64,000 bases of DNA from Cyanobacteriota bacterium (lineage in GTDB: Bacteria > Cyanobacteriota > Cyanobacteriia > Thermostichales > Thermostichaceae). The notes below the pieces were generated by a model. It saw nothing but the letters and a program-made list of their open reading frames with translations. It was not told the origin of the DNA and searched no databases. Numbering within the stretch: position 1 is the stretch's first letter; every line of letters starts with the position of its first letter. Positions 677 to 28,181 of this stretch are shown here, in pieces. The stretch is from the NCBI GenBank assembly GCA_033764955.1, contig JANRIL010000024.1, positions 64,001-128,000 on the forward strand. The letters are read 5' to 3'. The position numbers were made by a program, and so were the translations under genes.

Positions 677-1702
677 CTAGTCCAAATGCAATTGGGCAAT
701 TGTTTGTTGCAAAATTTCCCCAGAACGAGAGAGTTGCTGTTGCTCGGAAGGGGTGAGAGAAAGGGACAACACGCGGGACACGCCCTGCCGATCCACAATC
801 GCAGGTAAGCTGAGGCAGACTTCTTTCATGCCATACTGACCCGTGAGTAGGCTGCTGATGGTCAAGACCCGCCGTTGATTGTGTAGCACAGCCTCGACGA
901 TTTGGGTTACCCCCAGACCAATCGCATAACTGGTGGCTCCTTTGCGCTTGATGATCTCATAGGCGGCGTTTCTCACCTGCTCATAGATCTGGTCAATTTC
1001 CTGCTGACGAACGGGATCCTGCCATTCGGGGAACAAATCGGTGATGGAGGTTCCGACTACGTTGACCTTGCTCCAGACCGCCACCTCACTGTCGCCATGC
1101 TCGCCGATAATGTAGGCATGGAGACTACGCGGATCCACCTGAATTTTTTCGGCCAGCAGATAGCGAAAACGAGCGGTATCCAAGACAGTGCCGGATCCCA
1201 TGACCTGACTGGCTGGAAACCCCGATAGCTTGAGGGAGACATAAGTCATGATGTCAACGGGATTGCTGACGATGAGCAGAATGGCATCAGCACAGTGCTC
1301 TACCACCTGCGGAATCAAGCTCTTGAAAATTTCGGCGTTCCGCTGCACCAGATCAAGGCGGGTTTCACCCGGGCGCTGTTTAGCTCCGGCGGTGATGATG
1401 ACGATATCGCAGCCTTGACAGTCAGCTAGAGATCCAGCGCTGATGCGGGTGGGTTGAATAAAAGGGATCCCATGCACCAGATCCATGACTTCGCCCTCCG
1501 CTTTATCCCGATTTTGGTCACAGATCACCAGTTCATCGAGGGTATTTTGGATCAACATGGCATAAGCACAAGCCATGCCCACTTGTCCGGCACCAATGAT
1601 CGCTCCTTTGTGCAGGCGACGATCCACAACCGCAGGGCTAGACCGCAAATTTTCCATAACAGACCCCCAAGGCAATTCCACTAGTCTAGACAGAAAAAAC
1701 AT
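677..1702 (-). CDS. ldh: L-lactate dehydrogenase
   Basis: IIGAGQVG Rossmann motif, [13 protein letters not shown] loop, [16 protein letters not shown]; start may be 1657. Confidence 0.93.
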
Positions 1703-1819
1703 ATCATTCCTTCGCAGGAACGTTTTTTATTCTGTTAGAAATATGGTGGGTTTGGGCACTGAAACTGTCCTCAATTAGGGTTCAGTTGTGTTTCTAGTTC
1801 AGAGCTTAACCTCATCGTC

Positions 1820-2060
1820 GTCACGAACCCGACGCTGCCCTAAGCCCTTCGGTCAGGCTACGCCAACGGGAGAGCGCGGGCTTGTAAACAGCCAGGTTTA
1901 CAACGCAAGTCGTGACTAGACCATAAGCCAGCTAGATTGCACGGACTTCCGAGCGTTTTCCTAACTCGGATTGCCTCTAAACCCTCTGGCTGAGGGTGCT
2001 TGCAGAAAGGACATTAATCTATTTGGTGGTCGAAGGAACAAGTTGTTTTTGGATTATCTC
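1820..2060 (+). ncRNA. omegaRNA (HEARO-like) scaffold; guide predicted from the 5' flank (about 1800-1819)
   Basis: GTCACGA (1820-1826) pairs with TCGTGAC (1910-1916), enclosing CCCGACGC..GCGCGGG and TTGTAAAC..GTTTACAA hairpins; further stems TCCGAG..CTCGGA and ACCCTC..GAGGGT; directly upstream of the PLMP ORF. Confidence 0.75.
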
Positions 2061-2062
2061 CA

Positions 2063-3154
2063 ATGAACCCCAGCAGTCGCATTCCAGTATTAGCTCCAGA
2101 CGATACGCCACTGATGCCAACCTTGTACCGCAGGGCGCAAGCATGGGTAGATTCTGGCAAAGCCGAATGGGTCAGCAATGACCTCAACATTAAAGCTGTG
2201 CGTTTATATCAAGAGCCGTTTAGCCGCAACACTCAACCCATCGTGGTTGGCATCGACCCAGGTAAAAAGTTTTCAGGCATTGCCGTCCAATCCAGTCTCT
2301 TCACCTTGTTCAGCGCTCATCTGATTCTGCCCTTCCCGTCCGTCACTAAAAAGATGACGGGCAGGCGTATTCTCAGACGAGCGAGAAGGGGCAGACGCAT
2401 CAACCGCAAAGTGGCTTTCCATCTACGTGCTCACAGACAAAAACGGTTTGATAATCGCAGGCAAAAGAAGTTGGTGCCGTCAATTCGTGCCAATCGTGAA
2501 CTTGAGTTGCGACTGGTCAAAGAATTGTTGCGTCTATTTCCCGTCAGCACCATTGTTTACGAATACATTGAAGCCAGAGGAGATAAAGCTTTCAGCCCGG
2601 TGATGGTAGGGCAAAAAGTCATGCTGGAGCGACTACGCCAACTGGCTCCCACAACCACACAATTCGGCTGGGAAACGGCTAAACTCCGCACTCATCTAAA
2701 TCTGGTCAAACAAAAGGCTGATAAGTCCGCACAGACCCCCCAAACTCATGCGGTAGATGGTATTGCTCTTGCTGCGAGTCAGTTTGTGCAATACAAAGCC
2801 TTTTACACCACTCAGACACATGGGCATGACTGGGCGGGAACCGTGCGGCCAACGGCCTCTCCCTTTCGTGTGATTGCCCGTCCTAACCTGTTTCGCCGTC
2901 AACTCCACTTCGAGAACTTTGGCAAGGGTGGAATTAGAAAACGCAAGGGTGGCACTGTCACGCCATTCGGCTTCCGCTCTGGTGATTTTGTCGAAGCTGA
3001 AAAGGCTGGCAGAGTCTATCGCGGCTGGATTGGCGGCTTTAGTGAAGCCAGTAAAGTCGTTTCGGTGTATGACCACAACTGGCATCGACTAGGGCAATTC
3101 AAAGCGAACAAAGTCAACCTCATCAAGCGGAGTACAAAACTGTGTGTAGCGTAA
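2063..3154 (+). CDS. isrB: IsrB-type RNA-guided nickase (RRXRR/PLMP domain, split RuvC, no HNH)
   Basis: N-terminal TPLMPT, RuvC-I GIDPG, Arg-rich bridge helix RRILRRARRGRR, RuvC-II VYEY, RuvC-III HAVDG; 363 aa with no CxxC/HNH insert. Confidence 0.85.
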   Translation: MNPSSRIPVLAPDDTPLMPTLYRRAQAWVDSGKAEWVSNDLNIKAVRLYQEPFSRNTQPIVVGIDPGKKFSGIAVQSSLFTLFSAHLILPFPSVTKKMTGRRILRRARRGRRINRKVAFHLRAHRQKRFDNRRQKKLVPSIRANRELELRLVKELLRLFPVSTIVYEYIEARGDKAFSPVMVGQKVMLERLRQLAPTTTQFGWETAKLRTHLNLVKQKADKSAQTPQTHAVDGIALAASQFVQYKAFYTTQTHGHDWAGTVRPTASPFRVIARPNLFRRQLHFENFGKGGIRKRKGGTVTPFGFRSGDFVEAEKAGRVYRGWIGGFSEASKVVSVYDHNWHRLGQFKANKVNLIKRSTKLCVA

Positions 3155-3421
3155 ACCCATTGTCCGGCTCCGTCCCTGCGCCGGACTCGCATTCCTCCCG
3201 ACGCTCCCCTAAGCCCTTCAGGCAGGCTACGCCAACAGGAGCGCGCGGGACTCCTGCTGTTTTAGTTGAAGAAAACTAAGCAGAGAATTAGGAAGCAAAA
3301 GCCACTAGCTCCCATCCCATAGCAGCAAACCTTAATCAGGGTAGAGGCAGAAATTCGCGGCAAGAGACGGATTGGAAGGGATGCTATAGCGTGGATGGGC
3401 ATATTTTGCTTGTCAAGGATG

Positions 3422-3460
3422 GGGATGCCTCGTCGATAGGATTTACCGACGAGGCATCCC
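3422..3460. terminator. Strong 14-bp stem-loop between convergent genes (possible terminator)
   Basis: GGGATGCCTCGTCG - 11 nt - CGACGAGGCATCCC perfect inverted repeat; no clear U-tract. Confidence 0.45.
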
Positions 3461-3523
3461 AGTTGATGGGTAGGGGGATCCCGGCATTTCACCCATAAAA
3501 TTTGCCCATAAAAATGGCATGAC

Positions 3524-4030
3524 TCAAAGCTCGGTCATGCCAATCACATATTTTGACCATTCGCGGTGGGTGCCACTCCTGACCACCTTAGAAATCTCAA
3601 AGTAGAGGCTGCTGTGGGGGCGGCGAGGGGGACGCAAGAGGGGCATGTCGGCTTCGCGGGGGGTACGGCTGCCCTTCTTGACATTGCAGCGGACACAGGC
3701 ACTCACGACGTTATCCCAACTATCTCCCCCCCCACGGGAACGGGGAATCACATGATCAATCGTCAGGTCTTCGCCGGAACAGCCGCAATACTGGCAACTA
3801 TGACCATCCCGATACATGACATTGCGCCGCGTCAGGGGAATTTCTTTGTAGGGGACACTCACGTAATGGCGCAACCGAATCACCGTGGGCAAAGGAACAT
3901 CCCCATACACTCGCCGCCCATTATGCTCCACCTGCTCTGCCTTTCCTTTAAGCAAGAGGACAACGGCTCTCCGCCAACTGGTGATGTTGAGCGGTTCATA
4001 GGATGCGTTGAGAACCAGAACTTTACTCAT
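3524..4030 (-). CDS. HNH endonuclease (widespread cyanobacterial family)
   Basis: VLVLNASYEPL N-terminus, CQYC, TIDHVIPRSRGG, NVVSACVRCN. Confidence 0.93.
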   Translation of the reverse strand: MSKVLVLNASYEPLNITSWRRAVVLLLKGKAEQVEHNGRRVYGDVPLPTVIRLRHYVSVPYKEIPLTRRNVMYRDGHSCQYCGCSGEDLTIDHVIPRSRGGGDSWDNVVSACVRCNVKKGSRTPREADMPLLRPPRRPHSSLYFEISKVVRSGTHREWSKYVIGMTEL

Positions 4031-27741: not shown

Positions 27742-28181
27742 GAAGAGATAGCAGGGGCAGGTGATCGCGTCCTAATTTTTTAGGATGAGGAAAGTCCGGG
27801 CACCCTGAAGAACACATCGCTGGAGAAACTTCCAGTGCGGGTAACCGTGAGGATAGTGCCACAGAAACATACCGCCGATGGCAGCGTGTCTGCACAGGTA
27901 AGGGTGCAATGGTGGGGCGCAAGCTTAATGTAAGAGCCCACCAGCAACATCGAGAGGTGTTGGCTTGGTAAACCCCGATGGGGTGCAAGGCCGCAACAGC
28001 AGGAACATGGCTGTTCTTCGTCCCTGTCTGTTGCACCATCGTGATCAGAGGGATCCCTTCTGACTCAACGATGGTGAAGGTGTGCCGCAAGAGGTTGGTG
28101 GTAACATCAATCCCAGATAGATGATCGCCCATGTTCAGTTTGAACACCGACAGAACCCGGCTTACAACCTGCTGTCTCTTC
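27742..28181 (+). ncRNA. rnpB: RNase P RNA, type A
   Basis: GAGGAAAGTCCGGGC, AGTGCCACAGAAA, GGTAAACCCC, AGATAGATGATC, ACAGAACCCGGCTTA; P1 GAAGAGATAGCAGG/CCTGCTGTCTCTTC. Confidence 0.97.

Follow-up and report, generated by a model that had tools for sequence, protein, structure and literature searches.

The window, the whole 64,000-nt stretch of DNA that was analysed, carries a cyanobacterial mobile element of ∼1.45 kb that comprises an omega-RNA scaffold and isrB, and is bounded by subterminal hairpins. The element lies between genes for an L-lactate dehydrogenase and a stand-alone HNH endonuclease. The features of the locus, together with the RNase P RNA encoded further along the window, are listed in Table 1.

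Table 1. Features of the isrB locus and its surroundings, in window positions.
Feature	Position	Strand	Remarks
ldh, L-lactate dehydrogenase	677-1657	-	Flanks the element on the left
Guide segment, predicted	1800-1819	+	Host flank; 20-nt length by analogy with DtIsrB
Omega-RNA scaffold	1820-2062	+	S1, SL1, SL2, S2, S3, S4, SL4, SL5 and a 3' part with the ribosome-binding region; no SL3
5' boundary motif GTCA	1820-1823	+	TGAC on the strand that TnpA is inferred to cut; transposon right end
SL1 / right-end hairpin	1828-1880	+	Private insert of ~24 nt, about 1842-1865
DNA guide tetramer for right-end cut, predicted	1881-1884	+	First-base rule
Adaptor pseudoknot, SL2 loop	1890-1894	+	Pairs with SL5 loop, 1987-1991
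Nexus pseudoknot, SL4 loop	1958-1962	+	Pairs with 2034-2038
isrB	2063-3154	+	363 aa; PLMP, split RuvC (D65, E167, H229, D232), arginine-rich bridge helix, N285 as phosphate lock, R342 and Q345 for TAM reading; no HNH
Subterminal segment with small hairpin	3159-3196	+	Common to sibling IsrB elements and TnpB-type element ends of family relatives
Left-end hairpin, inferred TnpA site	3197-3249	+	Same insert as SL1; C3242 where siblings have A
DNA guide tetramer ACTC for left-end/target cut, predicted	3250-3253	+	First-base complementarity
Terminal spacer	3254-3265	+	3265 is the last element base
TTGA	3266-3269	+	Tetranucleotide targeted in the host and predicted to serve as TAM; not part of the element
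Stand-alone HNH endonuclease gene	3524-4030	-	260 bp downstream of the element
RNase P RNA	27747-28180	+	Class A by Rfam (216 bits); the later model part contains a long insertion

The protein encoded by isrB

A Pfam search of the 363-aa ORF returned only RRXRR (E 2e-40) and no HNH family, and the protein is collinear through the HNH-linker region with DtIsrB, the IsrB of Desulfovirgula thermocuniculi. In phmmer comparisons DtIsrB (PDB 8DMB) is the best match among solved structures, aligning over its full length to residues 5-359 (E 1.8e-48), while IscB structures align only to the N-terminal half. The NCBIfam IscB model matches residues 9-168 only, below its cut-off, and the HNH domain between RuvC II and III that defines IscB (HEARO) is thus absent. 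The PLMP motif, at residue 16, aligns to that of DtIsrB, and D65, E167, H229 and D232 are common to 80, 81, 81 and 79, respectively, of the 81 aligned proteins. These data bear out the initial description of the protein as one with a PLMP domain and the RuvC acidic residues (D65, E167 and D232) that lacks HNH. R342, Q345 and N285 align to DtIsrB R323, Q326 and N265, equivalences that were numbered by hand from the phmmer alignment. In DtIsrB, which uses a 20-nt guide, R323 and Q326 are reported to read the TAM (PMC9581776); R342 and Q345 are each kept in 80 of the 81 aligned proteins.

The protein has no departures from the consensus at 113 conserved columns among 82 distinct proteins, for which the median is 3, and synonymous codon differences outnumber non-synonymous ones against each of five close relatives (for example 145 versus 49). 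Counted against activity was Q134, which occupies the position of DtIsrB R124, a residue whose mutation reportedly lowered activity (PMC9581776); Gln is the commonest residue here among relatives (46/81). The fold returned by AlphaFold2 without an alignment was uninformative (pLDDT 42, pTM 0.22). The protein is predicted to be a guide- and TAM-dependent nickase of the non-target strand.

The omega-RNA scaffold

The preliminary description identified a structured upstream region that starts with GTCACGA at 1820 and proposed a covariance-model search. The heptamer pairs with 1910-1916. At both gathering and E-value thresholds Rfam matched no relevant family on the upstream region, and single-sequence folding of that region alone was no better than that of shuffles (z −0.45); covariation was therefore tested. 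The source set consisted of 80 genome loci and one family locus, from which 54 upstream regions were parsed; 40 of these were aligned with the window after removal of near duplicates and of regions whose inserts were large or whose starts or ends were doubtful. When the DtIsrB layout served as the template for a structure on the window, 81.5% of alignment cells were paired, compared with 63.7% in shuffles and at most 49.5% when the structure was slid, and 47 of the 61 pairs change on both sides in the 41-row alignment, which includes the window. As related sequences may exceed such shuffles without structure, and as the structure was drawn on a single row, the result of unguided RNAalifold carries particular weight: it returned 33 pairs, 30 with compensatory changes, and recovered the S2, S3, S4, SL4, SL5 and SL1 helices. 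All five pairs of each pseudoknot are formed in the window. In the adaptor pseudoknot 77.6% of alignment cells are paired and 4/5 pairs change on both sides, the respective values for the nexus pseudoknot being 99.5% and 3/5. The lower scores of SL1 (73.8% of cells paired) and SL2 (53.4%) reflect an alignment offset in that part. The upstream structure is thus upheld by covariation and by both pseudoknots, but not by folding energy. In one metagenome locus (L207) the omega-RNA core is near-identical to that of a further locus, L209, but the S1/SL1/SL2 module and the 3' end are of the window's type, which suggests that end modules have been exchanged between IsrB elements.

Element boundaries and target

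Three sibling elements on metagenome contigs (L206-L208; 83-87% amino-acid identity) match the window at both ends: the agreement begins at G1820 and, on the other side, extends to A3269, and beyond these positions the sequences differ. The GTCA start at G1820 and the TTGA located 3' of the terminal hairpin are invariant in all four siblings (the window and L206-L208). Among relatives, conservation is 0.01-0.17 bits at positions −12 to −1 before the start and 1.1-1.4 bits at the unselected positions +7 to +9, in a profile of the 52 regions parsed out of 78, which include a few with evidently misplaced starts. At the other end NTGA follows the terminal hairpin in 66/72 anchored loci, compared with 57/205 control windows.

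Empty sites were identified for three relatives, in which the left flank runs straight into TTGA, with no duplication, at 8 of 11 (L035), 5 of 11 (L029) and 8 of 9 (L018) loci; the ninth L018 locus is filled, and the other non-matching loci have diverged or lack an anchor. For a further relative (L016) the comparison, of four loci, was uninformative. As the empty sites keep TTGA without duplication, the tetranucleotide is host DNA and 1800-1819 is the predicted guide. A one-base shift of the boundary is formally possible for the three relatives because G precedes both motifs, whereas the siblings fix the exact boundary, since the base before GTCA varies among them and the G before TTGA is constant. 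Insertion beside a conserved tetranucleotide without target duplication is thus seen through empty sites in three relatives and through the siblings here. The boundaries proposed initially, a start at 1820 and TTGA directly after the 3' end, are in agreement with both lines of evidence, and the other copies, L206-L208, have the same boundaries. Of the guide and empty site first put forward, the position of the guide and the TTGA target find support in the relatives; for the junction of this locus itself no spanning match was present in 40 relatives, and the left flank has no exact match in metagenome contigs. As ldh does not adjoin the HNH gene at the loci of 13 relatives, these offer no syntenic empty site for comparison.

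The target motif also covaries with the ends of the element. In a count of 86 rows, from which 19 unparsed and 12 ambiguous rows were left out, the 3' hairpin-foot tetramer and the target motif have complementary first bases in 51 of the 55 unambiguous elements that remained. The corresponding 5' rule holds in 39/41 elements, the first base of the tetramer being C in 36/36 elements that start with GTCA and A in 3/5 that start with TTCA. The window obeys both rules. It is therefore very hard to sustain the view that TTGA is the element's own end, and hence silent on the TAM: its invariance in all four siblings would fit, but the motif is retained in real empty sites of three relatives and covaries with the hairpin-foot tetramer, as expected of a target. 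With respect to the NTGA-type TAM proposed in the preliminary description, the TTGA target and the retention of R342 and Q345 speak for it, but the TAM of the enzyme may be looser, for example NTG, as reported in vitro for two cyanobacterial IsrBs (PMC9581776). By their 3' ends, L016-L097 fall into a TTGA-target and an ATGA-target group, a split that follows a protein motif immediately preceding the TAM-reading arginine, and many ATGA-type elements seemingly lie at start codons of host genes, as judged by eye and uncounted.

The end hairpins and their private insert

Both end hairpins fold as DNA and there are no terminal inverted repeats, as is typical of IS200/IS605 elements. The two hairpins constitute a 53-nt direct repeat with 90.6% identity. 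The presence of hairpins at both ends, noted at the outset, thus stands, but they are weak when compared with shuffles (z −0.62 and +0.23; the hairpins of the siblings reach −2.4 to −3.4); the bulged foot of each is present in the minimum-energy fold. The siblings have near-identical S1, SL2 and termini and the same TTGA target, but lack the ∼24-nt insert found in both hairpins, which is the sole private feature of the window copy. The 5' and 3' tips differ from each other in the siblings but are near copies in the window, so that one of the two window tips probably arose as a copy of the other. Some of the insert is also present next to two tnpA genes of relatives, in one case at a different position, which suggests that it is a small mobile repeat; small mobile repeats of such a kind have been described in cyanobacteria. 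Given that DtIsrB RNA is reported to support nicking after deletion of SL1 (PMC9581776), the insert should affect mobility at most. An end swap specific to this host was also considered, as the five closest relatives in the genome collection have another hairpin type and TnpB elements of the family match the 3' segment at 84-95%. A recent event in the host was rejected because L206-L208 carry the same ends.

Proposed mode of action

Sequence evidence establishes the protein, the fold of the RNA including its two pseudoknots, the two ends of the element, the lack of a target duplication and the location of the TTGA target beyond the element. The locus has all the features of IsrB and of IS200/IS605 ends that can be examined by sequence, a transposase source excepted. 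The region is best interpreted, with a probability of about 0.8, as a non-autonomous IS200/IS605-family element with an intact-looking isrB and omega-RNA scaffold, which likely provides an RNA-guided nickase that would act on the site emptied by excision of the element. The initial view of a complete-looking IsrB OMEGA system is largely borne out by homologues, siblings and the empty sites of relatives.

By analogy with known systems, a Y1 TnpA acting in trans would have recognised both end hairpins on the minus strand. On that strand the 3' end of the element would be the left end, beside TCAA (TTGA on the plus strand), and the 5' end the right end, with the hairpin-foot tetramers serving as DNA guides for insertion beside TCAA. 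A transcript beginning in the left flank would give rise to an RNA in which the first ∼20 nt (1800-1819) are the guide, followed by the scaffold. Loaded IsrB would spare the filled locus, since GTCA rather than a TAM adjoins the guide match there. When 1819 is rejoined to 3266 a nick by the enzyme would be expected 8-11 nt upstream of TTGA, in the strand with the TAM, and repair from the sister chromosome may then copy the element back. Such restorative retention has been demonstrated for TnpB and IscB, IsrB not being among the cases listed in a 2026 review (PMC13565253). In the host assembly there is no full guide match with up to four mismatches before NTG and no match to the last 16 nt of the guide with up to two mismatches; one 12-nt match with one mismatch is present.

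No sigma-70-type promoter that could account for a guide-bearing transcript was found in 1600-3560, and the genes flanking the element lie on the opposite (minus) strand, which counts against the preferred interpretation. It lends appreciable, if lesser, plausibility to the view of a stranded, silent element whose structure is intact, with no promoter for the guide, no TnpA and altered hairpins that bind TnpA poorly, so that the enzyme may work in vitro and yet be idle in the host. Consistent with such a state, and likewise counted against the preferred interpretation, no Y1 transposase is present in the element or was found in the 89%-complete assembly, the IsrB element is single-copy within that assembly, and the hairpins carry the insert, plus C3242. 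The protein and the RNA core, however, have no signs of decay, and the bulged hairpin feet are kept in the minimum-energy fold. A Y1 transposase match is present in 19 of the 22 family relatives, and two of the 20 that were fetched lie beside similar hairpins; the ends of L188 and L190, each with a Y1 gene, resemble those of the window element. The host genome (G000) contains TnpB-only elements with the same hairpin family (L105 at the end of contig C45, L106 on C47, and others at the end of C39 and the start of C2), some at contig ends where tnpA could be unassembled. The targets of these TnpB elements, which lie on the opposite strand, are TTGA or CTGA; two of the elements' ends are at contig ends and the L106 tnpB contains an internal stop. 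The exact ends and undecayed protein make the element well suited to a test of whether nicking by itself can drive transposon retention, although many relatives are equally suitable.

Host and origin of the element

IsrB falls in a supported six-member clade with elements of other cyanobacterial families, to which its nearest named relatives also belong, and there are no host palindromes inside isrB. The clade placement and this lack of host palindromes are consistent with horizontal arrival.

The preliminary description reasoned that a thermophilic host would imply a thermostable nickase. The host groups with a lineage that includes hot-spring strains, and its genome contains ∼1,290 copies per Mb of GGGATCCC, the palindrome that PMC4390886 and PMC13756078 report from hot-spring Synechococcus lineages, compared with ∼29 per Mb of canonical HIP1. 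While the density of this palindrome favours a thermophile, the proteins point the other way. In 93 orthologue pairs a family relative (G001) has a higher IVYWREL content than the host (0.423 versus 0.406; higher in 78 pairs, lower in 12, equal in 3) and exceeds it in charged versus polar residues in 81 pairs, being lower in 6. Compared with a member of another family of the order (G023), the host is similar in IVYWREL (31 versus 23) and lower in charged residues. These comparisons used 200-kb samples and crude proxies, composition being shaped also by differences in G+C. A crude estimate from the genome gives ∼41 °C, with a tRNA GC content of 57%, and the window IsrB ranks 41st of 80 homologues in IVYWREL, which is average, its nearest named relatives being in other cyanobacterial families. 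A thermophilic host with a thermostable nickase is therefore improbable; the inference finds no support, the host proteins being clearly less thermophile-like than those of G001 and the IsrB average among its homologues. The window IsrB is most likely mesophilic, and a thermostable enzyme is unlikely. In G000 GGGATCCC replaces HIP1 as the dominant palindrome despite a proteome that is not thermophile-like, and the host may represent a non-thermal branch within a family that is known for members from hot springs.

A more ambitious scenario, to which we attach little credence, is that of an active, moderately heat-tolerant IsrB from a branch beside hot-spring cyanobacteria, in which one insert copied to both ends made the end hairpins a 53-nt direct repeat, and nick-triggered homing would keep the element in place without a resident transposase. 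If true, nick-triggered homing would be a role so far without demonstration for any IsrB.

The neighbouring HNH gene

The downstream HNH gene is 80-88% identical in all 13 family loci checked, indicating that it is a conserved host gene unrelated to the element. The proposal that it pairs with IsrB as a split IscB that makes double-strand breaks, prompted by a match of the gene to the HNH portion of the IscB model that falls below the cut-off (E 3e-18), was rejected as exceedingly improbable, as the gene lies beyond the end of the element, none of the 13 family HNH loci has isrB nearby, and any weak HNH match within 1.2 kb occurs at only 2 of 161 IsrB loci. The sequence directly after the element (3277-3460) copies, in decayed and frameshifted form, a short ORF located elsewhere in the host (G000:C34:69978-70298), which has a THNHP motif at its end and a weak RadC/JAB-like score (E 0.05). 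The 3' part of the copy is a near-perfect inverted repeat (about 3424-3460) in a terminator-like placement for the HNH gene.

Comparison with known systems

IsrB was reportedly first described by Altae-Tran in 2021. Relatives of the window protein are encoded on at least 171 genome and at least 134 metagenome stretches, and viral contigs contain one partial IsrB relative. One genome (G042) has 30 matches to the IsrB query, comprising several full-length IsrB-like copies and many IscB-like partial matches. PMC9581776 reports one solved structure for the family and activity for five more orthologues, of which two are cyanobacterial and have NTG TAMs. IsrB is also reported to have been used in diagnostics (PMC12188381). 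Cyanobacterial IsrBs have thus already been characterised, and the window element, while precisely delimited, is an ordinary addition to a well-populated family. As a tool it would extend the list of compact nickase candidates by one, with a guide that can be read off and a TAM predicted to be TTGA, or possibly NTG; because the motif is that of the thermophilic DtIsrB it brings no new targeting range, and a heat advantage is not evident either.

The window IsrB resembles DtIsrB (PDB 8DMB; Hirano et al. 2022, PMC9581776) in its full-length homology, PLMP motif, split RuvC and lack of HNH, and the two RNAs share S1/SL1/SL2, S2-S4, SL4, SL5 and both pseudoknots in group-B order, as well as the TTGA motif. 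In contrast to DtIsrB, the window scaffold is ∼243 nt rather than 262 nt, lacks SL3 and has a longer, branched SL1; the R124 position is Gln and the host is not evidently thermophilic. Closer in RNA architecture are the group B2 enzymes of Crocosphaera watsonii (CwIsrB) and Dolichospermum sp. (DsIsrB), which are reported to nick in vitro (PMC9581776). Compared by their published description, these are likewise cyanobacterial, lack SL3 and have SL2-SL5 and SL4-3' pseudoknots, but their measured TAM is NTG, in contrast to the TTGA predicted here. In its mobility the element resembles the IS200/IS605 elements of Geobacillus stearothermophilus that carry TnpB or IscB (Meers et al., bioRxiv 10.1101/2023.03.14.532601), with which it shares subterminal hairpins, an outside TAM, an inside TEM and covarying DNA guides, and for which non-autonomous copies moved in trans and a scarless donor joint are described. 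The nucleases of these G. stearothermophilus elements, unlike IsrB, make double-strand breaks, and it is for them that retention has been demonstrated (bioRxiv 10.1101/2023.03.14.532601).
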